The notes: generated from the sequence alone by a model not told the origin. A DNA stretch of 64,000 nt from Pseudomonadota bacterium (GCA_030538605.1 JAUNTQ010000007.1:10259-74258), one strand, 5' to 3'; positions 8,400 through 50,086 are shown, counted from the first letter of the stretch. Program-made: numbers and translations.

Positions 8400-9156
8400 G
8401 CCCAGCCGCACCCACCTGGTGCTCATCCCCAGCTACAACCCCGGCGCCAAGCTCATCGACACGGTGCGCGCCGCATGCGCGCAGTGGGCGCCGGTGTGGG
8501 TGGTGGTCGACGGCAGCACCGACGGCAGCGCAGAGGTGTTGCGCACGCTGGCCGACGAATGCGAACACCTGCGCGTCATCGTCAAGCCCGTCAACCAGGG
8601 CAAGGGCGCAGCCGTGCTCACCGGCATCGAAGCCGCCGCGCGCGAGGGCTTCACGCACGCGCTGACGATGGACTCCGACGGCCAGCACCCGGCAGACCTC
8701 ATCCCCACCTTCATGCAGGCCTCTCAACAGCGGCCCGAGGCCATGGTGCTGGGCGTGCCCCAGTTCGGCCCCGAAGCGCCGCGCATCCGCGTGCTGGGCC
8801 GCAAGATCAGCAACGGTTGGGCCAACCTGGAAACGCTGGGCGTGGGCATTGGCGACTCGCTCTACGGCTTTCGCGTCTACCCCATCGCGCCGCTCGCGCG
8901 CGTCATGCGCGGCCAGCGCTTCATGCGCCGCTTCGACTTCGACCCCGAAGCCGCCGTGCGCCTGGCCTGGGCAGGCGTGCCCCCCCTCAACCTGCCCGCC
9001 CCCGTGCGCTACTTCACGGCAGAAGAAGGCGGCGTGTCGCACTTCAAATACCTGCGCGACAACACCCTGCTGACGTGGATGCACACGCGCCTGTTCGCGG
9101 GCTTTTTGCTGCGGCTGCCGCTGCTGGCGTGGCGGCGTGTTTCAATAAAAAGATAG
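8392..9156 (+). CDS. Family 2 glycosyltransferase
   Basis: LVLIPSYNPGAKL...VVVDGSTDGSAEVL GT2 signature; its last 48 codons are duplicated at 27557-27691. Confidence 0.75.
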   Translation: MPEPSRTHLVLIPSYNPGAKLIDTVRAACAQWAPVWVVVDGSTDGSAEVLRTLADECEHLRVIVKPVNQGKGAAVLTGIEAAAREGFTHALTMDSDGQHPADLIPTFMQASQQRPEAMVLGVPQFGPEAPRIRVLGRKISNGWANLETLGVGIGDSLYGFRVYPIAPLARVMRGQRFMRRFDFDPEAAVRLAWAGVPPLNLPAPVRYFTAEEGGVSHFKYLRDNTLLTWMHTRLFAGFLLRLPLLAWRRVSIKR

Positions 9157-9248
9157 CTGCTTGCGCATGTATTTAATATGTTTAAGATTATTTAATATAT
9201 TAAACCTAATAAATACATTCGCAAGCAGCTACTCTTTTCATTTTTCTG
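9153..9248. repeat. Palindromic AT-loop element copy 1 (probable bidirectional terminator)
   Basis: 21-bp stem AGCTGCTTGCGCATGTATTTA / TAAATACATTCGCAAGCAGCT around a 34-nt AT-rich loop, with A-run upstream and T-run downstream; sits at the GT2 stop codon. Confidence 0.7.
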
Positions 9249-9375
9249 GGTGAGCGGCCATGCTCAGCCCGCCATGCAGTGGCAAGCTTGTCACGGTGTT
9301 TGCCTGCGGCTTTGCGGCCTACCATGAGGCCACTCATCCATGCCCAAGGCATTTCCTCCCCACAGCCATAGAGCC

Positions 9376-10416
9376 ATGCAAACTCTCAGCTACCACCTCA
9401 GCTTCAACACCCCCGCCTTCATGGGCAATGCGCAGCAATCTGCGCAGTGGCGCACACCCCCCATCAAGGCCCTGCTGCGCCAATGGTGGCGGGTGGCGGT
9501 GGCCTGGCAAATCGACTACGACGTAGAAAAGCTGCGCGAGCGCGAGAACGCCTTGTTTGGCGTGGCGGCTGATGGTGACAAGTCGAGCAAGAGCCTTGTG
9601 CGGCTGCGCCTGAGCCATTGGAGTAAAGGCAAGCTCGAAGACTGGCCACGACATGGCACGGTCTTCCACCCGGAAGTCAAGAATAGCCATATCGGCAGCG
9701 ACCTCTACCTCGGCTTTGGGCCGCTGGGGTACACGGGTGCCACCACCATCAAGCACAAGCCCGCCATTCACGCTGGCGACAGTGCCACCCTCCGCCTGTC
9801 CATGCCTGAAGAACATGCCCAGGACATCGCCACCGCCCTGTGGCTGATGCACCAGTACGCCGCCTTGGGCGGGCGCAGCCGCAATGGCTGGGGATCGCTT
9901 TGCCTGACACCTGCCGACGAGCACACACCCCCATTGCAAGGGCGCCCGATAAAGGAATGGACACGCGATTGGAACAAGGCGCTGACGCTGGACTGGCCGC
10001 ACGCCATCGGCCATGATGCGCACGGCCTGCTCGTGTGGAAAACCCGCCCCTTTGCCGACTGGCCACAACTGATACAGGAACTGGCGCGCCTGAAGATCGC
10101 ACTGCGCACGCAACAGTTCAAGTTCACCACCGGCAAGAACGCCCCCAGGCCGGAAGATCGCCACTGGCTCAGCTACCCCGTCACCAACCATTCAGTGGGA
10201 AGCTGGGGCGGCAGCCTCCGCCTGCCCAACAGCCTGCGCTTCAAGGTGCGCGCAGCCCCGGAAAACCCCGAGCAAGTCATCGGCGTGATCTTCCACATGC
10301 CCTGCCTGCCGCCCGACGCCTTCAAGCCCGACACCACAGCAATCACCCGCGTCTGGCAGCAGGTACACCAGCTCCTCGACAAACCCGAGCAAGCGCTCAA
10401 CCGCATTGACGCCTGA
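9376..10416 (+). CDS. cmr1: Cmr1 (type III-B RAMP)
   Basis: RAMP N-terminus MQTLSYHLSFNTPAFMGNA and G-rich loop GGRSRNGWGS; an alternative start at 9340 is possible. Confidence 0.7.
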   Translation: MQTLSYHLSFNTPAFMGNAQQSAQWRTPPIKALLRQWWRVAVAWQIDYDVEKLRERENALFGVAADGDKSSKSLVRLRLSHWSKGKLEDWPRHGTVFHPEVKNSHIGSDLYLGFGPLGYTGATTIKHKPAIHAGDSATLRLSMPEEHAQDIATALWLMHQYAALGGRSRNGWGSLCLTPADEHTPPLQGRPIKEWTRDWNKALTLDWPHAIGHDAHGLLVWKTRPFADWPQLIQELARLKIALRTQQFKFTTGKNAPRPEDRHWLSYPVTNHSVGSWGGSLRLPNSLRFKVRAAPENPEQVIGVIFHMPCLPPDAFKPDTTAITRVWQQVHQLLDKPEQALNRIDA

Positions 10417-10423
10417 GGCCCGC

Positions 10424-13400
10424 ATGACCACCCACCACGACACCCTCTGGCAAACCAAGCTGCACGCCCGCCTGCACGATTCGGCTGAAACAGCACTCTC
10501 GCTGCTGCACGACCCGGCCGGGCACACCGGCCACCATGCGCGCGTAGCGGCCCGCATGGCCTGCCGCGAAGGGCATGCGGCAGACGCCCCCATCGACAAC
10601 GACAACCCCGACGTGCTGCATGCCATCGCCTTCCCCAAAGGCATTCAGCCCGCCACCTGCCAAACCGTGCAGCGTGCCGACCGGTGGGCGGTGGGGGCCG
10701 ACCGGCCACAGTGGCCGCTGGGTGAGGTGCAGACCACTGCAAGCAACAGCGAGAAAAAGACCCTGGGCGTGGCCCCGTGGGCACAAGTGCGCTGGGTCAG
10801 CCAACCCGTGCTGATTCACCCCCTGACCGGTGCGCCATACGACCTGCAGGCGCATGGTGGCCTTTCGCAAGCCGACTTTCAGCACATCAAGGCACGCGCG
10901 CTTTCGCACCTGTCCAGCCTGCGGCTACCCGAGCAAGGCCAAATCGACCTCAAACGCACGCTGCTCGCCCTGTGGCGATTCGGCCCCGAGCTGCGCCAGA
11001 AAGAAGGCAGCGACAAGCTCGGCGAATGCTGGAAGCTGCTGCCCGCCGACACCCGCGTGCCTGACCACGCCATCTGGGACCACCTCGACCTCACCAGCGC
11101 CTTTGCAGGTGCCTTCGCCGCCGACCCCAAGGGCGAAGCCGCCTTGCTCACGCTGTCCATCGGCCCGGTGCAGCCCTTCATCGCTGCCGCCCGCAAGATG
11201 GAAGATCTGTGGGCCGGCTCGCACCTGCTGGCGCGCCTGTCGTGGGAAGCCATGCGCGTCGTTTGCGAGCAACTCGGCCCCGACGCCATCCTGTTCCCGC
11301 GCCTGCGCGGCGTGCCGCAGGTCGATCTGTGGCTGCGCGACCAATGCGGCCTGCCCCGCAAGTGGTTCGACGATTGCGACTGGATGCATGGCAGCACCGA
11401 CAGCAACCCGCTCTTCGCCGCCGCGTTGCCCAACCGCTTCGTCGCCACCGTGCCAGCCACCGGGGCCACGGCACTGGCCGAGAAAGTGCAAGAACAGGTG
11501 CGCCAATGGCTGCAAGACAAGGGCCAGCAGCTTGTCCGCTGCCTGCTGTCGGCTGCGGGCATCGAAGCCAACCCCGGCTTGCCATGCTTCGAGCAGATGC
11601 AAACACAACTGCAAGGCTTTCCTGAAGTGCATTGGGCCGTGGTGCCTTTCAGCCTCATCGATATGGCCGATGCGCAGACACACGCGGGCCTCGACACCAC
11701 GCAGCTTTCCGACGCCATGCGCCCCTTCTTCAACGGCGCGCCGGGCCAAAGCAGCGGCTTTCTCGCCAGCGATGCCTGGAAACTGCTGCAACGCGAGTTG
11801 AAAGCACAGCACGACAGCGGCCAAGCCTTCACGTTTTACAGCCCCAACCCAGGCGTGCTCTACCCCGCCGTCCACGAACTGGCCGAGCGCGCGCTGGCCG
11901 CCGCCAAGGCACTGCGCCCCTTTGGCCAGGCCACGCAAGAAGGCTGGCGCTGCACCCTCAGCGGCGAAGCCGAATGGCTGACCACCGACCGCACGCAACT
12001 CACTCTCTCCAGCGGCCAGCGCACCGACACGCTTTGGACGCGCCTTGCAAGCGCCAAGCCTGCCTGGGCCAGGCACGGCGAGCACCTGGGCGCACTGCCC
12101 GCCCTCAAGCGCCTGTGGCCCACGCTGTTTGCCGAGGAAGTGGCGAACGCAACTGGCACGCCAAGCATCGAGCGATTCGTCGTCTCGACCCACACGATGG
12201 CGCTGGCACACCAGATGAAGCAATGGTTGCAAAGCGACACCCCGTCTGCATCAGGACTGACAGAACTTCGAGATCGCTACAAAAGCAGGATTGATCCGGT
12301 AGCCCTGCCGCGCAAGCTCGTGCTCGACCACCTGGCGCTGAGCGGTCACGCGCTCGCCAGCGCTGCGGCAATGCCCGCCTTGCTCGATCTGGCCGACGAA
12401 GAACTGACCGAGGCCGAGGGCAACACCATCCGCCGTGTCGTGGGCCAAACACTTGCCAGCAGCGACAAGCATCAGACAAGCGACCGGCTGGAAACCTACT
12501 ACGCCCTGCTGCTCATGGACGGCGACCGCATGGGCGCATGGCTCTCAGGCGACAAGGCCATCGCCTACCGCGACAGCTTTCACCCGCAGGTGCAAAAAGG
12601 CTTTGACGAACGAGCCAAACGCAACGCCTCTCTGCACGCCTACGGCCAGCAGGCACGCGCCCTCACCCCGAGCCGACACCTGGCCATCTCCGGCGCGCTC
12701 AACGACTTTTCGCTCACCGTGGTGCGCCATGTGGTCGAGGTGGAGCACCTGGGCCGCCTGATCTACGCCGGTGGCGACGACGTATTCGCCATGTTGCCCG
12801 TGGCCGATCTGCTGCCTGCCATGCAGCGCCTGCGCCACGCCTACAGCGGCCACGACCCGGCACACGAAGGTGGGCGCGACCCGAGCGGCCTCACGCTGCA
12901 AGGCGGTTTTGCCCGCTTGCACGGCAAGCTCATGCGCATGATGGGCACCCAGGCCACGGCCTCTTGCGGCGGCGTCATCGCCCACCACCAGGCACCCCTG
13001 TCTGCCGTGCGCCGCGAACTGGCGGCTGCTGAACAGCGCGCCAAGAACGAAGGTGGCCGCGACGCGTTTTCCATCACCGTTGTCAAGCGCTCGGGCGGCA
13101 CGCTGCGCCTGACCGCCAAGTGGGACAAGGCCCGGGCGCTGCTCGACGATCTGCGGCGCTTTCTGGCGCGTGGCGACGTGTCGCGCCGCGCTGCCTACCA
13201 CACCCTGCAATGGCTCGACGCCAACGAGCTGCCCCAGCCCTTGAATCAGGACATGCTGCAAAGCCTGCTCAGCTACCAGCTTGCACGGCAGGCAGAAGGC
13301 AAAGCCCGGGCAGAGTCTGCCGGGCTGGCCCAGCGGCTGGTCGATTTGTGCATGAAGCAGCCCGGTCTCAAGCAAATCGAATGGCTGCGCAACTTCATCA

Positions 13401-13480
13401 GCGTGGCCGAATTTCTGGCGCGCGAAGTGCGCAGCACGCCCGAGGACAGCGCACACAGCACGCCCGAGGCCAGCCCGTGA
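10424..13480 (+). CDS. cas10: Cas10/Cmr2 large subunit with intact cyclase GGDD motif
   Basis: 1018 aa; motif LIYAGGDDVFAMLPV; N-terminal HD-like dipeptides (LHARLHD). Confidence 0.85.
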   Translation: MTTHHDTLWQTKLHARLHDSAETALSLLHDPAGHTGHHARVAARMACREGHAADAPIDNDNPDVLHAIAFPKGIQPATCQTVQRADRWAVGADRPQWPLGEVQTTASNSEKKTLGVAPWAQVRWVSQPVLIHPLTGAPYDLQAHGGLSQADFQHIKARALSHLSSLRLPEQGQIDLKRTLLALWRFGPELRQKEGSDKLGECWKLLPADTRVPDHAIWDHLDLTSAFAGAFAADPKGEAALLTLSIGPVQPFIAAARKMEDLWAGSHLLARLSWEAMRVVCEQLGPDAILFPRLRGVPQVDLWLRDQCGLPRKWFDDCDWMHGSTDSNPLFAAALPNRFVATVPATGATALAEKVQEQVRQWLQDKGQQLVRCLLSAAGIEANPGLPCFEQMQTQLQGFPEVHWAVVPFSLIDMADAQTHAGLDTTQLSDAMRPFFNGAPGQSSGFLASDAWKLLQRELKAQHDSGQAFTFYSPNPGVLYPAVHELAERALAAAKALRPFGQATQEGWRCTLSGEAEWLTTDRTQLTLSSGQRTDTLWTRLASAKPAWARHGEHLGALPALKRLWPTLFAEEVANATGTPSIERFVVSTHTMALAHQMKQWLQSDTPSASGLTELRDRYKSRIDPVALPRKLVLDHLALSGHALASAAAMPALLDLADEELTEAEGNTIRRVVGQTLASSDKHQTSDRLETYYALLLMDGDRMGAWLSGDKAIAYRDSFHPQVQKGFDERAKRNASLHAYGQQARALTPSRHLAISGALNDFSLTVVRHVVEVEHLGRLIYAGGDDVFAMLPVADLLPAMQRLRHAYSGHDPAHEGGRDPSGLTLQGGFARLHGKLMRMMGTQATASCGGVIAHHQAPLSAVRRELAAAEQRAKNEGGRDAFSITVVKRSGGTLRLTAKWDKARALLDDLRRFLARGDVSRRAAYHTLQWLDANELPQPLNQDMLQSLLSYQLARQAEGKARAESAGLAQRLVDLCMKQPGLKQIEWLRNFISVAEFLAREVRSTPEDSAHSTPEASP

Positions 13481-14973
13481 CCGAAGCCGCCCCCGCCCTG
13501 CTGACACAGCCCGAGGGCAAGACGCTGGAGTTCAAGCGCAACCTGAGTTCCCCGCGCAATGTGCTCAAGACCTTGGTGGCCTTTGCCAACTCGGCCGGTG
13601 GCAAGCTGGTCATCGGGGTGGATGACGCGCGCCGCATCGTCGGCGTGGCTGACCCGCTGGGCGAAGAAGAGCGTCTGTGCAACCTGATCGCCGACGGCAT
13701 CGCCCCGCGCCTGATCCCCAACGTGGAGCTGCTCAGCGTAGGCGATGCCACGCTGCTGGTGGCCGAAGTCTTTCCCAGCAGCGCCCGGCCACACCACCTG
13801 AAGGCGCTGGGGCCTGAACAGGGCGTATACCTGCGCCTTGGCTCCAGCAACCGCCAGGCTGGGCCCGACTGGATTGACGAAACACGCCGCGCGGCGGCCG
13901 GCCTGGTGTTCGACGAGCAGCCCATGCCCGAGCTGAGCGTGGACGATCTGGATCTGGACGCTGTGGCCCGCCTGCTCGGCCCAGACCGTGCGCGCGACAC
14001 TGCTGGCCTGCAAACCCTCAAGCTGCTGCGCATGGAGCAAGGGCGGCAGGTGCCTACGCAAGGTGCCGTGCTGCTCTTCGGTCGAAATCGCGCCCAACAC
14101 TTTCCAGACGCCTGGGTACAGTGCGGGCGCTTTCGCGGAAGCGAAAAGGTGGACATCTTCGACCAGCAGGACATCCACACATCCTTGCCCGACGCCGTGG
14201 CAGCCATCGAGCTGTTTCTGAAAAAGCACGCCCACAAAAGCGCGCGCTTCGGTGCCATGCAGCGTGAAGACGTGTGGAGCATTCCACTGACCTTGCTGCG
14301 CGAGGGCATCGTCAACGCCCTCGTGCATGCCGACTATGCGCAGCGCGGCACCCCCATTCGCGTTGCGTTTTTCGACGACCGCATCGACATCGAAAGCCCC
14401 GGCTTTCTGCTGCCCGGCATGACGGTGGCCGACATGCAAGGCGGCGTCTCGCGCATTCGCAACCCGGTCATCGCCCGCGTGTTCCGAGAGCTGCGCCTGA
14501 GCGAGCAATGGGGCAGCGGCATGAAGCGCATTTTTTCCGAGGCCGCCGCGTGGGGGCTGCCCCCGCCCAACGTGGCGGAATTCGCCACCGGCGTTCGCCT
14601 GCGCGTTTTTCTGGCCCCGGCCCACACCGAAGCCGCGCAAGCCCCGGCACCCACGCCCCCCCCCGACACTCCGCCGTCAAACACGCCGCAGCCAGAGTCA
14701 CAGCTAGAGTCACAGCTAGAGTCACGTCTGGCCGCCAAGGTGTTCCTGCTCCTGCACGCGAACGAATCGGGCAAAGCCGCCTTGGCGCGCGGCTTGGGGC
14801 ACCGCAGCGTATCGGGCGAGCTGCACAAGCAAGTGCAGCGTTTGCTCGCGCACGGCCTGATTGCCATGACCTTGCCAGACAAACCCCAAAGCCGCCTGCA
14901 ACGCTACCGCCTCACACAGCAAGGTCAGCGCCTGCTGGCCGCACTGCGCACCAAGGAAAACCCCGCCCCATGA
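13477..14973 (+). CDS. AlbA_2 (Schlafen-like) + HATPase_c_4 domain protein (COG2865-like) embedded in the cmr operon
   Basis: N-terminal KTLEFKRNL...VAFANSAGGKLVIGVDD (AlbA_2-like), C-terminal ...NALVHADY...FDDRIDIESPG (HATPase_c_4-like); GTG overlaps the cas10 stop and the stop overlaps the cmr3 ATG. Confidence 0.65.
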   Translation: MTEAAPALLTQPEGKTLEFKRNLSSPRNVLKTLVAFANSAGGKLVIGVDDARRIVGVADPLGEEERLCNLIADGIAPRLIPNVELLSVGDATLLVAEVFPSSARPHHLKALGPEQGVYLRLGSSNRQAGPDWIDETRRAAAGLVFDEQPMPELSVDDLDLDAVARLLGPDRARDTAGLQTLKLLRMEQGRQVPTQGAVLLFGRNRAQHFPDAWVQCGRFRGSEKVDIFDQQDIHTSLPDAVAAIELFLKKHAHKSARFGAMQREDVWSIPLTLLREGIVNALVHADYAQRGTPIRVAFFDDRIDIESPGFLLPGMTVADMQGGVSRIRNPVIARVFRELRLSEQWGSGMKRIFSEAAAWGLPPPNVAEFATGVRLRVFLAPAHTEAAQAPAPTPPPDTPPSNTPQPESQLESQLESRLAAKVFLLLHANESGKAALARGLGHRSVSGELHKQVQRLLAHGLIAMTLPDKPQSRLQRYRLTQQGQRLLAALRTKENPAP

Positions 14974-16094
14974 CCACCCTCACCTCCCTTTTCATTGAAC
15001 CGCTTGACGTGCTCTTCTTGCGCGGCAACCAGCTTTTTGGCGAACCGGGCAGCTACGGCGAGGCGCTCATGCCGCCCTGGCCCTCGGTGGCCGCAGGTGC
15101 CCTTCGCTCGCGCATCCTGGCCGACGACGGCGCAGACCTGCACGCCTTCGCGCAAGGCCGTGTCCCACACCCCGAACTGGGCACACCCGAGCAGCCGGGC
15201 AGCTTCTTGCTGCACGGCTTTCAACTGGCACGCCGCGCAGGCCAAAAAATGGAGCTGCTCATGCCTGTGCCCGCCGATCTGTTCGTCACCGAAAACGACG
15301 ACGGCACCCCTGCCGCCACCGCCCTGCACCCCACAGCGCCGCACAAGGCCATCGCCACATCCAGCCCGCTGCCACTGGTGCCGCTGCTGGCCCAGGCCGC
15401 GCGCGCCAAGCCCGCCAGCGGCTGGTGGCTGCGCGAAAGCGGCTGGCGCAAGCACCTGCACGCCCAGCCCATCGCCAGCAACGACCTGGTCAAGACCAGC
15501 GAGCTGTGGGCTTATGACGAGCGCATCGGCATCGGGCTGGACGAAACCCAGCGCAGCGCATCCGACGGCAAGCTGTTCAGCTCCCGCGCCGTCTGTCTGC
15601 ACCCAGGCGTCGGCTTTGCCGTGGCCGCCAGCGGTGCCCGCCTGCCCGCCAGCGGTGCGCTTCGCCTCGGCGGTGATGGCCGCGCCGCTCATCTTCACCA
15701 TGCCGCCATCCGCTGGCCCGAACCCGACCATGCCGCCATCGCACAAGCCCGGCGCTGCCGCATCGTGCTCACCAGCCCCGGCATCTTTTCCCACGGCTGG
15801 CAACTGCCCGGCATGGCAGCAGACGGCCAGCTCAGCTTGCCCGGCATGCGCGCCCGCGTGGTGGCCGCCGCCGTCAGCCGCGCCGAGACCATCTCCGGCT
15901 GGAACCTTGCCACCTGGCAACCCAAGCCCGCGCAAAAAGCCGCAGGCAGCGGCAGCGTCTACTGGCTGGACGACCTCGACACCACGCCCGATGCCCTTCA
16001 CAAGCTTGCCGCGCACGGCCTGTGGAGCCAGCCCTGCGAAGATGCGCCGCGCCGCGCAGAAGGCTTCAACCGCTTCAGCTTTGCCGTCTATTGA
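14970..16094 (+). CDS. cmr3: Cmr3
   Basis: Classic N-terminus LFIEPLDVLFLRGNQLFGEPGSYGEALMPPWPSVAAGALRSRIL. Confidence 0.75.
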   Translation: MTTLTSLFIEPLDVLFLRGNQLFGEPGSYGEALMPPWPSVAAGALRSRILADDGADLHAFAQGRVPHPELGTPEQPGSFLLHGFQLARRAGQKMELLMPVPADLFVTENDDGTPAATALHPTAPHKAIATSSPLPLVPLLAQAARAKPASGWWLRESGWRKHLHAQPIASNDLVKTSELWAYDERIGIGLDETQRSASDGKLFSSRAVCLHPGVGFAVAASGARLPASGALRLGGDGRAAHLHHAAIRWPEPDHAAIAQARRCRIVLTSPGIFSHGWQLPGMAADGQLSLPGMRARVVAAAVSRAETISGWNLATWQPKPAQKAAGSGSVYWLDDLDTTPDALHKLAAHGLWSQPCEDAPRRAEGFNRFSFAVY

Positions 16095-17393
<1,299 letters not shown>

Positions 17394-17396
17394 GCC

Positions 17397-18623
17397 ATGC
17401 CCATCTCCGCCACCCCCGCCTATCTAGGCCAGAACTTCAGCACCGCCTCACCCGGGCTGCGCTTTGGCATGTACCTGCCTTTGTGGGACACCGACCTCTG
17501 CTCCATCGTCACGGACAGCAAAACCAAGGCCTTGCAGCAAGCCTGCAAACTCACCGCCAACGACAAGGCCGTCATAAACGCGCTGGTTGATCGCCAAAGC
17601 CACCTCGCCAGCGCCTGCCCGCACCTGCTCACACTCGATGCCACCGCCGTCGCCCCCTTCACCACCGGCCTGGGCAACGAGCACCCGCTTGAAAACGGCT
17701 TTGCCTTCCTCAACCCCTACGGCCTGCCCTACCTGCCCGGCAGCGGCGTCAAGGGCGTGCTGCGTCAGGCAGCGCGCGAGTTGGCCAAAGGCGATTGGGG
17801 CGACACCCACGGCTGGACGGACGAGAAAATTTACCGGCTCCAACGCACGGGCGAGAAAGACATCGCGCTCACCCCACTCGACGTGCTATTCGGCCTTGAA
17901 AACACCGACGGCAGCACCGAACACGTGCGCGGCGCACTCAGCTTCTGGGACGCCCTGCCAAAAATCCACGGCGAAGCGCTGGCCGTGGACATCATGACCC
18001 CGCACCAAAGCCACTATCACCAGCAGAAAAAAGATCGAGAGAGCGGCTCCAGCACCACCCCGCACGACAGCGGCAAGCCCAGCCCCATCAGCTTTCTCAC
18101 GCTCCCGCCGGGCACTGAATTTGCCTTTCACGTGCAGTGCGATCGGGCGCACTTGAAGCACCTCGCGCCCGAACTGGCCGACAACTGCCATTGGCAAAAG
18201 CTCGTCATGGCCGCCTTCATGCATGCCTTTGAATGGCTTGGCTTCGGTGCCAAAACCGCCGTGGGCTACGGCGCGATGAAGATCGATGAGCGCGCAACCA
18301 ACCGCCGCGCACAAGCCCGCCAGGAAGCTGACAAGACTGCACGCATGGCCAGCCTCTCACCCGCACAGCGGCAAATCCAAGAGTTCGAGGACGAGCTGCG
18401 CGCCAAGCACGAGCAATACCCGGCCTACAAGGAAGGCCCCAACGCCGCCTTCCACAACAAAGCCCGCCAGCTCGCCAAAGCCGCACACGAAGCCACCGAC
18501 TGGAGCGCCGACGAAAAGCGCGCCGCCGCCCTAGCCATTGAAACCTGGCTGCCCAAGCTGGTGCGCGTGGAAATGAAGGAAGAGCGCAAGAAACTCGGCC
18601 TCGCCGCGCTCAAAGGGCTATGA
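17397..18623 (+). CDS. cmr6: Cmr6 (RAMP) with a roughly 120-aa charged C-terminal extension
   Basis: GLPYLPGSGVKGVLRQAARE and FGLENTDGS RAMP motifs; extra coiled-coil-like C-terminus. Confidence 0.75.
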   Translation: MPISATPAYLGQNFSTASPGLRFGMYLPLWDTDLCSIVTDSKTKALQQACKLTANDKAVINALVDRQSHLASACPHLLTLDATAVAPFTTGLGNEHPLENGFAFLNPYGLPYLPGSGVKGVLRQAARELAKGDWGDTHGWTDEKIYRLQRTGEKDIALTPLDVLFGLENTDGSTEHVRGALSFWDALPKIHGEALAVDIMTPHQSHYHQQKKDRESGSSTTPHDSGKPSPISFLTLPPGTEFAFHVQCDRAHLKHLAPELADNCHWQKLVMAAFMHAFEWLGFGAKTAVGYGAMKIDERATNRRAQARQEADKTARMASLSPAQRQIQEFEDELRAKHEQYPAYKEGPNAAFHNKARQLAKAAHEATDWSADEKRAAALAIETWLPKLVRVEMKEERKKLGLAALKGL

Positions 18624-19555
18624 CCGAGCACCTCGGCACCCTGCCCATCGCCCGCCTGCGCCTCACCGTGCGTGCAGACGCGCCGCTGCACCTGCCACCC
18701 TACGCTGGCTCCATGCTGCGCGGTGCCTTCGGCCACGCCCTGCTGGCGCTGGCCCCTCTGCCGCACCACGGCGGCCAGCCCTGTGCGCTGCACGCCAGTT
18801 GCCCCTACTGCCAGGTATTCGCCAGCCCGCCACTGCCCGCCCACAGCCTGCAAAAGTTCAGCCAGATGCCCGCGCCCTACGTCATCGAGCCGCCCGAAGG
18901 CGGCGCGCAGCGCTTGTCCGCAGGCCAAGCCTTCGACTTCGGCCTGGTACTCATCGGCAAGGCACTCACCCACATCGGTGCCATCGAACGCGCCTGGCAA
19001 CGCGCCCTGCGCATCGGCCTGGGCCACGAACACGCACCATGCACCCTTGTGAAAATTCATGATGAAAATGGCGAAAAACCCTTTGAAATCATGCGCGAGA
19101 AGCTATCAAAATCAATAATCGATCTACCCCCCGCCCCCACGCTCACCCACCGCGCCACGCTGCACTTTCACACCCCCCTGCGCCTGCAAATACAAGGCAA
19201 GCCCGCCCGTGCCCACCAACTCACCGCGCGCCACCTGCTGATCACCCTCGCACGCCGCTGGCAACTGCTGCAAGACGTGCATCTCGGTGCCGCCGCACCG
19301 CAGCAAGACTTTGCCGCCCTCAGCACCCAGGCCAGCGCCATCACGCTGCAAGCGCATGGCCTGCGCTGGTACGACTGGGGCCGCTACTCACAGCGCCAGC
19401 AGCGCGAAATGCAACTCGGCGGCCTGCTCGGCAGCCTGCACCTGCACGGCGAACTGTCACCCTTCGCCCATCTGCTGCACCTGGGCCAATGGCTGCACCT
19501 TGGCAAGAACACCAGCTTTGGCCTGGGCGGCTATCGGCTGCAACTCGAAGGGTGA
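18620..19555 (+). CDS. cas6: Cas6 pre-crRNA endoribonuclease
   Basis: C-terminal glycine-rich loop GKNTSFGLGGY; ATGA coupling to cmr6. Confidence 0.75.
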   Translation: MTEHLGTLPIARLRLTVRADAPLHLPPYAGSMLRGAFGHALLALAPLPHHGGQPCALHASCPYCQVFASPPLPAHSLQKFSQMPAPYVIEPPEGGAQRLSAGQAFDFGLVLIGKALTHIGAIERAWQRALRIGLGHEHAPCTLVKIHDENGEKPFEIMREKLSKSIIDLPPAPTLTHRATLHFHTPLRLQIQGKPARAHQLTARHLLITLARRWQLLQDVHLGAAAPQQDFAALSTQASAITLQAHGLRWYDWGRYSQRQQREMQLGGLLGSLHLHGELSPFAHLLHLGQWLHLGKNTSFGLGGYRLQLEG

Positions 19556-19703
19556 CGCGCGCACACACCCAACGACCTGCCGAATGCAAACCGATCCAGC
19601 GATCATCCCCGCAAGCTTGCCACCCCGCTGAAAGCGTGTCCGCGCCCGGAAAATCGCGGCCCAATAGCCTGGCTGCCCTCTCCCGCTCGCACACACACAC
19701 GCC

Positions 19704-21175
<1,472 letters not shown>

Positions 21176-21195
21176 CCCGTCCACAACAAGCATCC

Positions 21196-22416
21196 ATGCC
21201 AACCACCACGCACACATTGCTCGCCACCACAGGCGCATCGCCTCAAGTGGTCACTGAAACACTCTATGCCATTCACCACGAAAACCTGCAATGGCCTGAT
21301 GACATTTACTTGATTACCACCAGCTTCGGCAAGAAAAGAGCTATTGAAGGCCTGCTCCATCAACACCACTTGCAGCGCCTTTGCACACAATTGAATCGCC
21401 CCACGCCCGCCTTTGACGGAAGCCATGTGCTCGTCACACCCGGTGCGGACGGCAGCGCCGTAGAAGACGCGCGCTCACTGCAAGACCACGAAGCCCTGGC
21501 CAACTTCATCATGACCGAAGTGCGAAACCTCACCGCACAGCCTCGCGCCAGCCTGCACGCCTCTCTGGCTGGCGGCAGAAAAACCATGACGTTCTACCTG
21601 GGTTACGCCATGAGCCTTTTTGGGCAAGCGCAAGACACCTTGAGCCACGTGCTGGTGAGCGACGGCTACGAAACACTGCCAGACTTCTGGTTCCCCACAG
21701 CCGAAAGCAGCATCGTGAAGAACAGCCGAGGCGAAGAAATGGACGCAAACCTTGCCAAAATCACGCTTGCACCCATTCCCTTCATTCGCCACCGCTTCAA
21801 CCTGCCGAAAGTGCTGCTGCAAGATAACGAAGTCGTTCAGTTTTCCGATCTGGTTCAACTCATCAACCTGGGCGAAAACCTTGACTCATTGCGAATAGTT
21901 GTTGACCCTCCCCAAAAGACCATCCGCGTCGAGAGCACGGAAAGCCAACTCTCCATTCCTTTCCAGCCCGGCCCTCTGGAAATGGCTTTTTACAGCATGA
22001 TGGCTCGTGGTACACGAGAAGGAGAACATGATCTCACACGCCCTGACAAGCCAGACCGTGGTTTGTCTCATGAATTGATGAGAGAGCTTATGCCCATTTG
22101 CGCACAACCCTACGATGACGAAAATCTCGCAAACAACATCGCCAAGCTCAAAGACTGGAACATAACAAACCCCTCATTCAAGGAAGACACCTTTGATGTA
22201 CTCGCAACAGGCATCACTCGCAGTTGGTTTGACTCAAGGAAAAACACACTTGTCGAAATGTTCTCCAAGAAGCTGCCCGGCAGCCTTGTTCGCAGGGTTG
22301 CGCCTTCCATCATCTGGTCAGGCAGCCAGCGCATCACGCCCGGTGACATGACGAGGGTACCCAAAGGTGGTGGCTACGGCATCGACATCAAGCCAGAAAA
22401 CATCATCATCAACTGA
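21196..22416 (+). CDS. Second CARF-domain protein (Cas_NE0113-like) with an unknown, low-GC C-terminal domain
   Basis: N-terminus LLATTGASPQVVTETLYAIH typical of the NE0113/Csx1-like CARF family; the last ~220 codons drop to about 48% GC. Confidence 0.6.
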   Translation: MPTTTHTLLATTGASPQVVTETLYAIHHENLQWPDDIYLITTSFGKKRAIEGLLHQHHLQRLCTQLNRPTPAFDGSHVLVTPGADGSAVEDARSLQDHEALANFIMTEVRNLTAQPRASLHASLAGGRKTMTFYLGYAMSLFGQAQDTLSHVLVSDGYETLPDFWFPTAESSIVKNSRGEEMDANLAKITLAPIPFIRHRFNLPKVLLQDNEVVQFSDLVQLINLGENLDSLRIVVDPPQKTIRVESTESQLSIPFQPGPLEMAFYSMMARGTREGEHDLTRPDKPDRGLSHELMRELMPICAQPYDDENLANNIAKLKDWNITNPSFKEDTFDVLATGITRSWFDSRKNTLVEMFSKKLPGSLVRRVAPSIIWSGSQRITPGDMTRVPKGGGYGIDIKPENIIIN

Positions 22417-22454
22417 AGCGCCGACGCCTGAAAAACGGCCAAATCGTGCAAGCC

Positions 22455-22494
22455 AAAACGCTTCCTGACAAGCTTGTCAGGAAGCGTTTTTTTG
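22455..22494 (+). terminator. Rho-independent terminator
   Basis: Perfect palindrome AACGCTTCCTGACAAGCTTGTCAGGAAGCGTT followed by T7. Confidence 0.8.
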
Positions 22495-22893
22495 TTCATT
22501 TCCTTCACAATTCACTTATGGCTGCAAAACAGTGACAAGCAGTCGGCGTCCAAAAATCTCATCCAACACACCCGTCTACCTCACAAGCTTGCCACCCTCT
22601 TGAAACCAATATTCAGCACACAAAAACAGCACCCAAGCTTGTCAGAGATAAATTCGATCCGCCCTCTGACATCATCGCACTCTGCTCAAATTACTCCCTA
22701 AACAGAGTCAGGCAAATTCGACATTTCTCAACACCCAAAAAACTCACGCCACCAACCTCATTTCAAAGAAAATCAACATGACATCCCTCCTGAAGACACT
22801 CACCATCATCATCACCATCAAAATCCCTCTTCCGTGGGAGTGACATCCCCGCCCTTCACCCTCTCACAACCCAACCCATTCAAGGGAAAACCC

Positions 22894-23088
22894 ATGTCCA
22901 TCGATAAAGCCATTCATCTCGGCCTGACCGCCAAAAAACTCTCCCGCACCATCACCGGCACCGACGAGGTGAGCCTTGGCCGCAGCGTCATCGCCACCGG
23001 CCCCGTCCTCGCCCCTGCCATCTCAGTCGTCATCGCAGTCGCCGCCGCAACCGGTGCCGTCGCCCTCATCCGCAGTCTCTGGGACTGA
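22894..23088 (+). CDS. Small hypothetical protein (64 aa) with a hydrophobic C-terminus
   Basis: AGGGAAAACCC-ATG RBS; lies between the AT-rich spacer region and cas2; weak support. Confidence 0.25.
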   Translation: MSIDKAIHLGLTAKKLSRTITGTDEVSLGRSVIATGPVLAPAISVVIAVAAATGAVALIRSLWD

Positions 23089-23109
23089 CCTTTCCGCGAC
23101 CCGACCACC

Positions 23110-23388
23110 ATGCCCCGCACCCTCTACCTCGTTGCCTACGACGTGCGCGACCCCCGTCGCCTGGCCAGGGTGGGGCGCTACTTTCAAAGCTACCGCGTTG
23201 CCGGGCAGAAAAGCGTGCCCGAAATCTGGGTCACCCCCGGCGAGCTGCAAGCCATCCAGCGCGACATCGGCCAGCTCATCGACCAGAGCGAAGACCGCCT
23301 TCAACTCATCGCCCTTGACCCCCGCATGCAGCGCCAATGCCTGGGCAAAGCCGCCACCTTTCGCGCACCCTACTTCTGCGTCGTCTGA
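23110..23388 (+). CDS. cas2: Cas2-like protein (extra paralog upstream of cas1)
   Basis: N-terminus MPRTLYLVAYDVRDPRRLARV, matching the Cas2 beta1/catalytic Asp region. Confidence 0.65.
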   Translation: MPRTLYLVAYDVRDPRRLARVGRYFQSYRVAGQKSVPEIWVTPGELQAIQRDIGQLIDQSEDRLQLIALDPRMQRQCLGKAATFRAPYFCVV

Positions 23389-23421
23389 ACAACCCGCCAC
23401 CACCGCCAAGGATCCCCTTAC

Positions 23422-24408
23422 ATGAGCAGCCTCTACATCGACCGCCGCGACATCCACCTGCGGCACGACAGCGGCGCCATCGCCTTCTACGAAAACGGCC
23501 AGCGCAGCGCCACCGTTCCGCTCGCCCCGCTCACCCGCGTCATCCTGCGCGGCCACGTCAGCCTTGACGCAGGGCTGCTCGGCCACCTGGGCGAGCAAGG
23601 CATCGGCCTGCTCTTTCTCAGCGGCCGCCAGGGCCGCCCCCACCTGCTGCTCGGTCGCGCCCACAACGACGTCACCCGTCGCGTCGCCCAGACACGACTG
23701 AGCCTCGACACCGACTTCTGCCTGCGCTACGCCCGCCAGCTCATCCACGCCAAGATTGAAAGCCAGTGCCAATGGTTCGACACCCTGCGCAGCCAGCACC
23801 CCCAGGCACGCTACCCCCTCACCCACGCACTGCGCCAACTGCGCGAACACCAAGCCCGCCTGCCCACCGCCCCCCAACTCGACAGCCTGCGCGGCCTCGA
23901 AGGTGCCGCCGCCGCCAGCTACTTCGCAGGCCTGCGCGCCATCGTCCCCCCAAGCTGGAACTTCAGCCAACGCAACCGCCGCCCCCCGCGCGACCCCTTC
24001 AACGCCCTCATCTCCCTCACCTACACCCTCGTCATGGCCGAAACCGCCCTCGCCCTGCACACCGCTGGCTACGACCCCTGCATCGGCTACTACCACCAAC
24101 TCAGCCACGCCCGCGAATCACTCGCCTGCGACCTGCTCGAACCCCTGCGCCCCCTGGCCGACCGCCTGTGCCTGCGCCTGGCCAGCCAGCAAACCCTCAC
24201 CGCCGAACACTTTCGCACCACCGACGCCGGATGCATGCTCGGCAAAGCAGGCCGCGCGCGCTACTACAGCGCCTACGAAGAAAACGCCCGCCCCATCCGC
24301 CAGGCCCTTGCCGCCGAAATCAAAACCCTCGCCCACCTCGTCAACCCCGACCTGCCCGAACCCGCCACCCAACACCCCAGCACCCAAGCCACAAACAAGC
24401 CAACATGA
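23422..24408 (+). CDS. cas1: Cas1 integrase
   Basis: 328 aa; conserved GYDPCIGYYHQLSHARESLACDLLEPLRPL region. Confidence 0.9.
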   Translation: MSSLYIDRRDIHLRHDSGAIAFYENGQRSATVPLAPLTRVILRGHVSLDAGLLGHLGEQGIGLLFLSGRQGRPHLLLGRAHNDVTRRVAQTRLSLDTDFCLRYARQLIHAKIESQCQWFDTLRSQHPQARYPLTHALRQLREHQARLPTAPQLDSLRGLEGAAAASYFAGLRAIVPPSWNFSQRNRRPPRDPFNALISLTYTLVMAETALALHTAGYDPCIGYYHQLSHARESLACDLLEPLRPLADRLCLRLASQQTLTAEHFRTTDAGCMLGKAGRARYYSAYEENARPIRQALAAEIKTLAHLVNPDLPEPATQHPSTQATNKPT

Positions 24409-24773
24409 GCGAGCACATCATCTGCTACGACATAGCCAACCCGCGCCGCCTCGCACGCGTTCACAAGCTGCTCAAAAAGCAAGCCCTGCCGCTGCAATAC
24501 TCCGTCTTCCTCTTCAGCGGCACCGACACCCAGCTAAAGTCCTGCCTGACGCAACTCCAAGCCATCATCAACCCCCACGAAGACGACATACGCGCCTACC
24601 CCCTGCCCCAACGCGACCTGCGCCTCGTCCTCGGGCCATCCACACTGCCAGAAGGCATCACCCTGGGCAGCCTGCCCACAGACCCGACAAACCATCCCCC
24701 CCAGCCCCAGCCCCAGCCCACAGCAGCAGCCACCCCACCCAAGGCCCAACAAACACACCTCACCCACCTTTGA
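24405..24773 (+). CDS. cas2: Cas2 (canonical position, ATGA-coupled to cas1) with a Pro/Gln-rich tail
   Basis: MSEHIICYDIANPRRLARVHKLL...; C-terminal low-complexity PPQPQPQP tail. Confidence 0.75.
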   Translation: MSEHIICYDIANPRRLARVHKLLKKQALPLQYSVFLFSGTDTQLKSCLTQLQAIINPHEDDIRAYPLPQRDLRLVLGPSTLPEGITLGSLPTDPTNHPPQPQPQPTAAATPPKAQQTHLTHL

Positions 24774-24831
24774 AAAAACCGCTACCCGCATCTCCAAACA
24801 CTTGATTCACAAGCACTTTCCCCCGCCCGCA

Positions 24832-26865
24832 GCCCAAAACCAGCCCTGAATTCAAAGGGATTAAGACCGGATTGGCCGTCTGATGCGCTGGCTGGTGCTC
24901 GCCCAAAACCAGCCCTGAATTCAAAGGGATTAAGACCGCCCCTTCACCGGCAAATACGAACAGCACTGGGGCCCAAAACCAGCCCTGAATTCAAAGGGAT
25001 TAAGACGATGTTCGGCCCTCGCTTCAAAGTGGAGGACGGGCCCAAAACCAGCCCTGAATTCAAAGGGATTAAGACGCAGCATGGCTGCCTCGCACGCGGC
25101 ATCAGCCACGCCCAAAACCAGCCCTGAATCCAAAGGGATTAAGACTTTTCACGCAAGCTTCAGTCAATTTATTGTGAAGCCCAAAACCAGCCCTGAATTC
25201 AAAGGGATTAAGACACACCCTGGCCATCGGCTGGCGCGGCTCGAAGCCCAAAACCAGCCCTGAATTCAAAGGGATTAAGACGTTGATGAAGGCGTGGCAA
25301 TGCTCACTGCCCGCGCCCAAAACCAGCCCTGAATTCAAAGGGATTAAGACAACCCATGTTTCAGGGTTTTCCATGCGCTGTGGCCCAAAACCAGCCCTGA
25401 ATTCAAAGGGATTAAGACGTGAATCGGGACGCTGGGCATGGTATCGGTGGGTGGCCCAAAACCAGCCCTGAATTCAAAGGGATTAAGACGAAGCCATCGC
25501 GGGCCTTTCGGCTGTCGAACTTGCCCAAAACCAGCCCTGAATTCAAAGGGATTAAGACTTGACGGCGCGGTTCAGGGCGCCGGCGGTAGCCGCCCAAAAC
25601 CAGCCCTGAATTCAAAGGGATTAAGACCGGGGGCGGGGACGGGGGCGGCGGCAGCGTGCGCCCAAAACCAGCCCTGAATTCAAAGGGATTAAGACTGCAG
25701 GGTTTCCCACGTCTCTAGGGCGGAGCGGGCCCAAAACCAGCCCTGAATTCAAAGGGATTAAGACGGTTGGCCCCGGCGAGGTTGGCCCCGGCGAGGCCCA
25801 AAACCAGCCCTGAATTCAAAGGGATTAAGACCACTTGATTGGCGCTGGGTTGGTCGAGGTTGTGGGCCCAAAACCAGCCCTGAATTCAAAGGGATTAAGA
25901 CGCGCCGTGCGCGTCAATGGCGGCGCGGAATGCGCGCCCAAAACCAGCCCTGAATTCAAAGGGATTAAGACTGCGGCGCCCAAACAAACCGCCCTCAAAC
26001 TCACGCCCAAAACCAGCCCTGAATTCAAAGGGATTAAGACGCGGCAGCGGCAGCGGCAGCGTGCAGGGTTTCCCGCCCAAAACCAGCCCTGAATTCAAAG
26101 GGATTAAGACGCCTCGTGGCGTTTCGAGGCATGTATGTATTATGGCCCAAAACCAGCCCTGAATTCAAAGGGATTAAGACATGCCTTGGCTTCAGCCCCC
26201 TTTTTTGTGATGGCCCAAAACCAGCCCTGAATTCAAAGGGATTAAGACCTTGGCAGGCACAAAAGAGGCAGACAGGCGCGACCCAAAACCAGCCCTGAAT
26301 TCAAAGGGATTAAGACCATGCAACTGTCTCGCCTTCGCGTATTCGCACGCCCAAAACCAGCCCTGAATTCAAAGGGATTAAGACGCGTTCGGCGCAGGAA
26401 CAATCGCAGGAACACTCGCCCAAAACCAGCCCTGAATTCTATGGGAGTACGACGATGGAGGAGGTGATGCCGTGCGCCAGGTAGGCCCAAAACCAGCCCT
26501 GAATTCAAAGGGATTAAGACCTGGCGCACGCCGCGATCACGGCCCAGATTGCGGCCCAAAACCAGCCCTGAATTCAAAGGGATTAAGACAAGCCCCTGAC
26601 CGAAAAGCAGCGCGCGTTCGCCCGCCCAAAACCAGCCCTGAATTCAAAGGGATTAAGACGAACACGATGATTTTGTCATTGCTTGGCTGCTAGGCCCAAA
26701 ACCAGCCCTGAATTCAAAGGGATTAAGACTGTTTGAGGTGGGTGATCTCGTCGACGTTGTCGGCCCAAAACCAGCCCTGAATTCAAAGGGATTAAGACCG
26801 GGTGACCAGCGAGTGACGCACGATTTTTTGCCCAAAACCAGTCCTGAACTCAACGCGGCAGGCTC
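24832..26865 (+). CRISPR. CRISPR array: 29 full 36-bp repeats GCCCAAAACCAGCCCTGAATTCAAAGGGATTAAGAC plus a degenerate terminal repeat; spacers 31-36 bp; leader on the 5' (cas2) side
   Basis: Regular repeat-spacer periodicity of about 67-71 bp; one repeat variant (GAATCCAAAGG) and one degenerate internal repeat at 26418; terminal repeat degraded at 26830. Confidence 0.95.
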
Positions 26866-26948
26866 TCACTAATGGGCGCTATCGCCTGACCAAGCCATCG
26901 TCCGGCTGGGCCGCGCCGCACAACGCCCTCGAAAGGAATAAACCCGCA

Positions 26949-27431
26949 ATGTCCACCACCATCCACCGCTGGTCTCCCCACCCCCAGGCTCACTACGCCG
27001 AGCAGGCCACGTCAGACGAAATGGCCCGCGCCATCATCGACATGCCCACCACGCACTGGAACGTCGCCTGGCTCACCCTGCCGCCCGTGGCCGAATGGCA
27101 GCCGCTGCACATCGACATGCTCGAACAGAGCCTTGAATGCAAGATAGATACGAGCAAGCACATCTGCACCGTCGAGCGCTTGGCAACCCTTCCGGCGGTC
27201 CACTTCGCCACTCTCTCGCGCATCGGCAAATGGCTGCAACGCCCCCGCGTCATGGACTTGCGCAAAGACTGGCTTGAACACTGGAACACTCGCGCAAGGC
27301 AAGCCCGCTGGGGGCACCCCAACATCCTCAACATGATGATCGACGAGCCTGCCAACGGCGTTGAGGCTGCCCGCATCATCCTGAGCCGCTGGGGCTTCGC
27401 CAAGACTTTTCAGGACCCGCCCGGCACCTGA
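26949..27431 (+). CDS. Hypothetical protein (160 aa) inside the island, downstream of the array
   Basis: AAAGGAAT RBS 8 nt upstream of the ATG; no recognisable domain. Confidence 0.4.
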   Translation: MSTTIHRWSPHPQAHYAEQATSDEMARAIIDMPTTHWNVAWLTLPPVAEWQPLHIDMLEQSLECKIDTSKHICTVERLATLPAVHFATLSRIGKWLQRPRVMDLRKDWLEHWNTRARQARWGHPNILNMMIDEPANGVEAARIILSRWGFAKTFQDPPGT

Positions 27432-27556
27432 TACCTGGCACCTGACACTTGCCATGCCCCCCAACAAGCCAGCACCCTCGCCTGCCACCTCCAGCAGTTG
27501 CACCCCACGGCGAACGACCCGCCACCAGCCAGTCCCCCGTGCGCGGCTTCAGCGCC

Positions 27557-27691
27557 GAAGAAGGCGGCGTGTCGCACTTCAAATACCTGCGCGACAACAC
27601 CCTGCTGACGTGGATGCACACGCGCCTGTTCGCGGGCTTTTTGCTGCGGCTGCCGCTGCTGGCGTGGCGGCGTGTTTCAATAAAAAGATAG
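27557..27691 (+). pseudogene. Duplicated 3' end (last 45 codons) of the GT2 glycosyltransferase gene; right-hand direct repeat of the island
   Basis: 147 bp 100% identical to 9022-9168, including the stop codon and the first arm of the palindromic element. Confidence 0.85.
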
Positions 27692-27776
27692 CTGCTTGCG
27701 CATACTTTTAAATGATTTCAGACATAAAATCATTTTAAAATGCTTAATATCATACGCAAGCAGCTTCTTTTTTTCT
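27688..27776. repeat. Palindromic AT-loop element copy 2
   Basis: AGCTGCTTGCGCATAC...CATACGCAAGCAGCT arms with a nested AT-rich palindrome, flanked by A-run and T-run. Confidence 0.65.
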
Positions 27777-49176: not shown

Positions 49177-50082
<906 letters not shown>

Positions 50083-50086
50083 TTTT

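Follow-up and report, generated by a model that had tools for sequence, protein, structure and literature searches.

A 64,000-nt stretch of a Pseudomonadota bacterium contig (GCA_030538605.1, JAUNTQ010000007.1:10259-74258), here called the window and numbered from its first letter, carries a type III-B CRISPR-Cas genomic island that lies directly behind the 3' end of an intact GT2 glycosyltransferase gene and is bracketed by long direct repeats. The locus shows the target-derived repeats and the empty sites in relatives that characterise genomic islands, but has no recombinase gene. Its attachment at a GT2 3' end is secure, because the island has no replication functions and both of its ends are joined to GT2-derived sequence. 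We give about an even chance to the view that a Campbell-type single crossover, carried out by host homologous recombination, placed this horizontally acquired island in the ~80-bp spacer between GT2 and a cation:proton antiporter gene. The source is an 83,597-bp contig of a metagenome-assembled genome (MAG), and its Cas10, antiporter and ORF160 (a protein encoded at the right end of the island) match proteins of an NCBI MAG labelled Pseudomonadota bacterium at 100%. By gene content and homology the host is an Ottowia-like member of the Comamonadaceae. The features that define the island boundaries are as follows.

8392-9156, + strand: GT2 glycosyltransferase, 254 aa, intact (Pfam Glycos_transf_2, E=5e-20); stop codon TAG at 9154-9156, inside a palindrome
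8999-9021 versus 27534-27556, + strand: imperfect left extension of the repeat, 18/23 bases identical, 5 mismatches
9022-9168, + strand: left copy of the 147-bp perfect repeat, by re-alignment
9148-9245, no strand: palindromic element PE-L, arms ATAGCTGCTTGCGCA / TGCGCAAGCAGCTA, 49-nt AT-rich self-complementary loop, flanking A-run and T-run
9169-27556, + strand: DNA specific to the island, 18,388 bp from one perfect repeat to the other, missing from all related loci and distinct in composition
27534-27691, + strand: GT2 3' remnant, ~158 bp, ~52 codons, its first 23 nt diverged from the resident gene and the rest identical; signature sequence SPVRGFSAEEGG
27557-27703, + strand: right copy of the 147-bp perfect repeat, by re-alignment
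27683-27780, no strand: palindromic element PE-R, same arms, different loop, abutting the antiporter stop codon
27775-29055, - strand: Na+/H+ (cation:proton) antiporter (Pfam Na_H_Exchanger), first gene of the - strand half of the flanking cluster, convergent with GT2

A first-pass annotation of this DNA had reported an exact repeat at nt 9022-9168 and 27557-27703, and re-alignment bears this out (147/147 positions, 0 mismatches). Apart from the CRISPR array, the 147-bp block is the sole long two-copy repeat in the first 40 kb. The left copy consists of the last 135 nt of the GT2 open reading frame (ORF), including the stop codon, followed by 12 nt that reach the end of the first arm of the palindrome; the 3' end of the ORF overlaps the palindromic element from nt 9148 on. 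The gene at the left copy is complete, as had been claimed. The homologous unit is wider than 147 bp, with diverged homology on both sides of the perfect block. To the left, the 23-nt extension is codon-aligned and in frame with the GT2 C-terminus, and the left edge of the remnant has codons in the state of other lineages of Ottowia, AGC being that of O. flava and GCC that of O. testudinis. On the right side, each copy leads into a full palindromic element, and the right limit of the perfect block is the exact tip of the first palindrome arm. If divergence were uniform, the chance of finding all five mismatches in the first 23 of 170 positions would be ~5e-5. Orthologues of the block in the nearest relatives are ~13% different, so that the perfect block points to a single recent origin within the same lineage. 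This mosaic, with 0/147 mismatches beside 5/23 and an unrelated loop, would fit diverged homologous patches that underwent either reciprocal crossing-over or, at a later time, conversion over a tract. The first-pass annotation had suggested capture by recombination at the palindrome or the 3' end of the gene; the mosaic agrees with an exchange between two homologous patches, and would look alike for RecA and for a site-specific recombinase that acts in trans or is now lost.

The palindromic elements at the two boundaries belong to a dispersed REP-like (repetitive extragenic palindromic) family, whose members are multi-copy, intergenic, imperfect palindromes. Four copies with an identical arm spacing of 65 nt occur in the 64 kb, the further two at nt 50082-50179 and 59321-59418 (more narrowly, 50089-50164 and 59328-59403), and the conserved ATAG of the element provides the stop codon both of GT2 and of an IclR gene (59327-59329). 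PE-L folds with -38.7 kcal/mol (z = -6.9) and PE-R with -30.0 kcal/mol (z = -4.4). Their first arms are identical and their second arms and T-runs similar, and the AT-rich loops of 49 nt bear no relation to each other, a gapped alignment giving ~34/49 identities. Inversion of the loop between the two elements is ruled out, as the match is 34/49 in the forward and 32/49 in the reverse orientation. The element had been described as a palindromic terminator. The palindrome stands, as one of the four REP-like copies; the terminator function is suggested by the strong hairpin and T-run, and a simple terminator scan made no call at PE-L or PE-R, the loop being too long. Like REP elements and bacterial interspersed mosaic elements (BIMEs), this element is a multi-copy, intergenic, imperfect palindrome placed at gene ends in the manner of a bidirectional terminator; it differs from them in its long, variable, AT-rich loop of 49 nt and in the ATAG, from which two upstream genes take their stop codon. 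No gene for a REP-associated tyrosine transposase (RAYT, TnpA-REP) turned up in the 64-kb window, though no association test aimed at RAYT was made. In relatives, the orthologous spacer between GT2 and the antiporter carries a different and shorter hairpin, a GC-rich palindrome of a kind common in Comamonadaceae.

GT2 is the last gene of the + strand half of an aryl-polyene (APE)-like cluster. The flanks hold a pair of ketosynthase (KS) and KS-like genes, a ketoreductase (KR), dehydratases, an AMP-ligase, LolA-like and MMPL export genes, acyltransferases and GT2, which together identify a cluster of the aryl-polyene type, and the syntenic O. testudinis cluster has Pfam ApeP-like and ApeI-like domains. 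Orthologues of GT2 are 68-83% identical in 80 genomes. The empty-site scan used one genome per species from GTDB and covered 80 loci (L001-L080) to 10 kb downstream of GT2. No cas genes follow GT2 in any of 86 related loci, the closest included. A convergent GT2 (+) facing fabG/KS genes (-) is general in Betaproteobacteria, and GT2 directly faces an orthologue of the antiporter in L011 (Ottowia flava), L019, L059, L073, L090, L095, L096 and L097, with a gap of 55-97 bp containing a hairpin in the five spacers that were measured (L011, L090, L095, L096, L097). The antiporters of the closest relatives, O. testudinis and O. flava among them, are 75-87% identical; for the nearest homologues (87%, 84% and, in O. 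testudinis, 81%) the gap is 55-80 bp. Removal in silico of one repeat and the island leaves the GT2 stop codon, 83 bp with PE-R and the antiporter stop codon, which is the layout of the empty sites.

The island is thus an insertion relative to every related genome examined. The first-pass annotation had proposed an insertion and had suggested looking for an empty site; GT2 directly facing the antiporter was found in O. flava, O. testudinis and the closest metagenomic relatives, and none of the 86 loci has the same arrangement as the window. Its statement that the island splits the cluster is right in the physical sense. No gene or operon is interrupted, however, and the island sits in a short spacer between units that are ancestrally convergent. 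All of the island gene content is on the + strand. The island has a GC of 0.50-0.70 compared with 0.69-0.75 in the cluster genes on either side, which speaks for a foreign origin, as do the unrelated contexts of similar cassettes. The GT2-fabG spacer is also a recurrent variable spot across Betaproteobacteria, where the antiporter may be there or missing and unrelated DNA takes up 0-4 kb; in some loci GT2 is followed directly by fabG, in others by the orthologous antiporter, and many Hydrogenophaga and Azonexus loci have 1-4 kb after GT2 with a different, + strand Na/H exchanger homologue (25-28% identical).

No ORF of the island matches an integrase, an excisionase or remnant of one, a transposase, a relaxase or a replication protein (Pfam, NCBIfam, PADLOC), and no integrase or transposase lies elsewhere in the 64-kb window, of which the other 36 kb are housekeeping genes (oligopeptide ABC transport, acetyl-CoA hydrolase, a molybdo-enzyme operon, IclR). 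Scans of the whole window for tRNA, tmRNA and Rfam families were empty, so there is no tRNA or tmRNA target. Only one non-Cas gene adjoins a repeat.

26949-27431, + strand: ORF160, orphan 160-aa protein at the right end of the island, with gene-like GC at third codon positions (GC3, 0.83) and codon bias

ORF160 has no match in Pfam, NCBIfam or PADLOC, and a word-indexed search gave no homologue apart from the 100% match to the protein of the source MAG. Among 1.84 billion representatives, 12 remote homologues (28-38% identity) were found, which define a very rare family of ~155-165 aa with invariant RWSP and WN..W motifs. The AlphaFold model, built on a 13-sequence alignment, is confident (predicted local distance difference test, pLDDT, 86.7) and has no structural neighbour in PDB and no recombinase-like fold. 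ORF160 was therefore rejected as a hidden recombinase, with no family match, only remote homologues and no fold match, and nothing was found in support of a link to recombination. The earlier statement that no integrase or transposase lies inside the island holds against the profile searches and the fold comparison alike.

Host homologous recombination is the likeliest route of entry because the identity block is long, has diverged homology on both sides and is accompanied by no recombinase gene. A length of 147 bp is well above the minimum for RecA-dependent exchange. Starting from the observed repeats, insertion polarity, cargo, mosaic identity and absence of a recognisable recombinase, we infer a circular intermediate, a single crossover and the use of RecA. 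The island would have arrived with its own copy of the target, a ~170-bp GT2 3' fragment and a palindrome of the resident element's family, and, with the island as a circle, this patch would have undergone one reciprocal crossover with the resident GT2-hairpin. As one outcome the island would come to lie behind an intact GT2; as the other, the far side would become a hybrid of the left part of the patch with the resident hairpin and antiporter. The left copy would then be composed of chromosome-left sequence, the block and donor-right sequence (the PE-L loop), and the right copy of donor-left sequence (the diverged 23 nt), the block and chromosome-right sequence (PE-R, placed against the antiporter as the hairpin is in the empty sites). 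The same repeats would allow a precise, RecA-dependent loss that restores the empty site; in the predicted attB, nt 8999-9168 lead straight into the sequence from 27704 on, and at the predicted circle junction nt 27534-27703 lead into that from 9169 on.

Several points weigh against entry by a host-mediated crossover. The case is a single genome, and a MAG, and the left edge with its divergence comprises 23 nt. Such an entry does not account for how the island came by a GT2-like patch, and no donor was found in PLSDB, IMG/VR or the flanks of the partial related loci. A site-specific recombinase encoded elsewhere, or since lost, would give exactly the same structure, and later gene conversion between the copies could produce the perfect block independently of the entry route.

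The possible, if doubtful, alternative is a decayed or satellite integrative element, with a tyrosine or serine recombinase that has since been deleted or acts in trans, the repeats being attL and attR and the attP site of the element mimicking the 3' end of the target gene. Insertion at a gene 3' end with the gene restored, direct repeats, a compositional offset and empty sites form the classic island signature, and integrase crossovers are typically found beside dyad-symmetric sequence. In Vibrio, cases are documented of CRISPR-Cas systems on islands and prophages that bear an integrase, and direct repeats of 156 bp belong to one of these (PMC6360697). Neither the island nor the 64-kb window, however, has an integrase, an excisionase or a remnant, the one candidate protein beside a repeat lacks a recombinase-like fold, the related cassettes examined have no adjacent integrase, and 147 bp of identity is long for an att core.

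A linear donor DNA from a related strain, with the island already beside that strain's GT2, is an unlikely source. Here entry would be by homology-facilitated illegitimate recombination, with a homologous crossover in or upstream of GT2 and an illegitimate join of the far end of the island to the recipient's GT2 at about nt 27534, and the remnant would be the resident 3' end. The abrupt start of the remnant, with fuzzy, degraded homology to its left, agrees with such a join, no recombinase is present, and the well-conserved flanking APE genes could have served as anchors. The remnant would then be the recipient's and the intact copy the donor's, which predicts evenly spread divergence; 0/147 beside 5/23 needs an additional gene conversion, and it is left unexplained why the hairpin of the remnant is the one placed as in the empty sites.

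Assembly support for the junctions was examined in independent Logan k=31 unitigs of run SRR24915824. Unitig L081 matches nt 9139-14723 without a mismatch, its start taking in exactly the last k-1 = 30 nt of the left repeat. Unitig L082 covers nt 22461-27586, with 99.2% identity over 22461-24924 and 100% over 26763-27586, and ends exactly 30 nt into the right repeat. Since the unitigs stop 30 nt inside the repeats, the raw reads contain both island-to-repeat junctions, with the repeat as a branching node; k-mer junctions alone do not separate an integrated island from an empty site plus a circle. In L082 the CRISPR array is collapsed to a single repeat path. L081 ends at nt 14723, inside the AlbA_2 gene of the island, a sign that a 31-mer may be repeated there or that strains may vary at this point. 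Exact-protein look-ups for GT2, the antiporter and FabG (for a conspecific empty site or a second island copy) gave no match, and the exact junction pattern is absent from JGI metagenomes. A megablast of the island against PLSDB returned no plasmid match, and no Cas6 relatives were found in IMG/VR.

An assembly artefact, in which the 147-bp repeat node was mis-threaded and the truth is an empty site with the island on a separate molecule or in another strain, is very improbable. The MAG source, the branching of the repeat in the k=31 graph and the lack of the flanking chromosomal genes as exact products in the Logan contigs of SRR24915824 all speak for it. Against this, both island ends are joined to GT2-derived sequence in raw-read k-mers, 18.4 kb of DNA without a replication or partition function is implausible as a free replicon, and the repeat edge breaks GT2 in k=31 unitigs, so an intact GT2 is not expected there. 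The weakest contender, an ancestral island lost repeatedly in relatives by recombination between repeats that would permit precise deletion, has next to no probability, given that 86/86 related loci lack it (including the closest, with antiporters 81-87% identical), that its GC is lower, that homologous cassettes lie at other chromosomal sites and that zero divergence over 147 bp marks a recent event; gain at this site would be far more parsimonious than repeated loss elsewhere.

Three further mechanisms were considered and rejected. Had staggered cuts produced a long target-site duplication, identity should be uniform throughout the duplicated unit, contrary to 0/147 beside 5/23 and to the unrelated loops. 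Xer-mediated insertion at dif, as in integrative mobile elements exploiting Xer (IMEX), does not apply: the PE-L loop is dif-like by eye with the wrong spacing, no dif match at <=3 mismatches occurs in the window, and the element is multi-copy. A transposon or casposon is excluded, as there is no transposase, Cas1 belongs to a cas2-cas1-cas2 adaptation module by the array, and the 147-bp repeat includes a gene end.

The cargo is a complete type III-B CRISPR-Cas locus in which Cas10, Cmr1, Cmr3-6, Cas6 and the array are all present. Its features, found by profile searches unless another basis is given, are listed below.

9340-10416, + strand: cmr1, RAMP (Pfam RAMPs, weak TIGR01894 match, position kept in relatives)
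10406-13480, + strand: cas10/cmr2 (Pfam Cmr2_N and Cas10-Cmr2_palm2; an NCBI MAG protein with the name type III-B Cas10/Cmr2 matches at 100%)
13477-14973, + strand: AlbA_2 (Schlafen-type)/HATPase_c_4/Fic-like_C gene, between cas10 and cmr3
14970-16094, + strand: cmr3 (Pfam Cas_Cmr3, E=5e-64)
16122-17015, + strand: cmr4, RAMP domain, 76-83% identical in relatives
17019-17393, + strand: cmr5 (Pfam Cas_Cmr5)
17397-18623, + strand: cmr6 (TIGR01898)
18620-19555, + strand: cas6 (Pfam CRISPR_Cas6)
19704-20012, + strand: csx16 (Cas_VVA1548), profile matches
20009-21175, + strand: Csx1-type CARF-HEPN effector (TIGR02221, DxTHG motif, PADLOC CARF_HEPN E=3e-152)
21196-22416, + strand: Cas_NE0113 CARF protein (NCBIfam name: ring nuclease Csm6), profile matches
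23110-23388, + strand: cas2, first copy, 92 aa (Pfam CRISPR_Cas2)
23422-24408, + strand: cas1 (Pfam Cas_Cas1, E=2e-74)
24405-24773, + strand: cas2, second copy, 122 aa (Pfam CRISPR_Cas2)
24832-26866, + strand: CRISPR array, 30 copies of the 36-nt repeat GCCCAAAACCAGCCCTGAATTCAAAGGGATTAAGAC with ~69-nt spacing, last copy degenerate (repeat search)
9280-9293, no strand: palindromic motif ACAAGCTTGYCA (core CAAGCTTG), upstream of cmr1
16000-16011, 19611-19622, 22466-22479, 22583-22594 and 22633-22644, no strand: further copies of the ACAAGCTTGYCA motif (motif search)

The assignment of Cmr1 relies on the RAMP domain and on position, the TIGR01894 match being weak. Both the type III-B assignment and the gene inventory of the first-pass annotation (cmr1-6, cas10, cas6, CARF effectors, cas1/cas2, the array and one ORF) agree with these searches, to which the AlbA_2/HATPase_c_4 gene between cas10 and cmr3 must be added. 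The start of that gene overlaps the cas10 stop codon (GTGA), and its stop codon overlaps the cmr3 start (ATGA). The Csx1 CARF-HEPN and NE0113 CARF proteins are predicted to be effectors responsive to cyclic oligoadenylate and accessory to the type III-B system. Two different cas2 genes flank cas1, and the cas2-cas1-cas2 order is kept in related cassettes.

The ACAAGCTTGYCA motif has 10 matches, compared with 0.65 expected, and stands ahead of four cassette units, namely cmr1, cmr4 (here within the 3' end of cmr3), csx16 and cas2-cas1. Its positions are kept in related cassettes whose DNA is only ~70-75% identical (L083 at 8812/14120/18196/21057; L086 at 191/5425/9777/12598; L098 at 362/7099), and the palindrome with its CAAGCTTG core is a candidate for an operator or a promoter element in this family of type III-B cassettes. 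The low-GC spacer between NE0113 and cas2 (nt 22417-23109, ~0.7 kb) lies in 1-kb windows with GC down to ~0.50, and an ORF within it, ORF75, has a GC of 0.45. The spacer carries a strong perfect hairpin with a T-run (~22452-22493), three CAAGCTTG motifs and a small ORF (22834-23088, 84 aa) that has a hydrophobic C-terminus and is a gene call in the Logan contig too. It is longer here than its counterpart in related cassettes.

Other type III-B (Cmr) cassettes of Burkholderiales share the gene order of this one, and their Cmr1, Cas10, Cmr4-6, Cas6, Csx16, Cas1 and Cas2 proteins are 60-83% identical. Cassettes in which Cas10 is 66-74% identical and the order is the same lie in unrelated genomic contexts; one (L083, on a 3.7-Mb Burkholderiaceae contig) is adjoined by a HAD hydrolase gene and a type I restriction-modification (R-M) operon. 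None of the related cassettes examined has an integrase next to it, and no long flanking repeats were found around them, the loci being partial. The effector differs: Csx1 (CARF-HEPN) is present here, whereas the Burkholderiales cassettes L083-L087 have Card1. The swap lies within an otherwise collinear cassette (nt 20009-22416 here; Card1, with CARF and endonuclease, at 18536-20870 in L083 and 10198-12482 in L086), and DNA homology to the related cassettes is lost from ~19950 to 23100. The AlbA_2/HATPase gene between cas10 and cmr3 is found here and in the metagenomic cassettes L098 (4620-6056) and L099 (2-1435) only, at 75% and 68% aa identity, respectively, and is absent from that position in L083-L089. 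In L083 an AlbA_2 homologue (28% aa identity) occurs inside the type I R-M operon, between hsdS and hsdM.

Islands, prophages and transposons that have att sites and long direct repeats are documented carriers of CRISPR-Cas loci, type III-B among them, Vibrio being one example (PMC6360697). Well known, too, are islands whose target is a protein-coding gene with its end restored (PMC4482086). With gene-end islands bounded by attL/attR (the tRNA, tmRNA and dusA types; Vibrio GI-24; PMC4482086, PMC6360697) the present locus shares foreign composition, empty sites, target-derived repeats, gene restoration and defence cargo; unlike them, it has no integrase or excisionase, a perfect repeat of 147 bp and, as target, a glycosyltransferase end fused to a REP-like palindrome. 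Integrase-less, att-flanked cis-mobilizable elements (CIMEs), remnants left by integrative and conjugative elements (ICEs) or integrative and mobilizable elements (IMEs), have been reviewed (PMC5704250). They too have att-like repeats and no recombination or transfer genes of their own, and would depend on functions supplied in trans. In contrast, no cognate ICE, IME or integrase is known for this site, none is found in the 64-kb window or by the related cassettes, and the cargo is a complete CRISPR-Cas system and not ICE debris. IMEX elements, which use XerCD at dif, likewise lack a recombinase gene of their own, but here the window has no dif-like site, the landing element occurs in several copies and the repeat measures 147 bp instead of ~28 bp. 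Campbell-type and homology-facilitated illegitimate recombination share with this locus an insert bracketed by duplicated homology, copies that are chimeric between donor and recipient, and the lack of a dedicated recombinase. Both are mainly described for plasmids, vectors and experimental transformation. To our knowledge, no natural 18-kb CRISPR-Cas cassette with a short mimic of a chromosomal gene end has been described. A boundary that combines long repeats, a gene end and a palindrome without an integrase is unusual, and not unprecedented in principle.

The movement of complete CRISPR-Cas loci between genomes is only partly understood, and most documented cases involve plasmids, prophages, transposons or integrase-bearing islands. 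The practical value of the present case is modest, as the arrangement is covered by known categories and the evidence comes from a single MAG. With boundaries resolved to the base pair, many empty sites and no recombinase, it does offer a setting for the question of whether an 18-kb defence cassette can come and go by homologous recombination of the host alone. A more general possibility, to which we assign only a slim chance on this single case, is that integrase-less defence cassettes carry a mimic of a gene end and REP-like palindrome and hop by means of host functions (RecA or a host enzyme acting on the palindrome) into palindrome-tagged convergent intergenic sites of related genomes; ORF160 could then be an accessory factor. 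If this were true, it would represent a distinct, host-dependent route for moving whole CRISPR-Cas loci.

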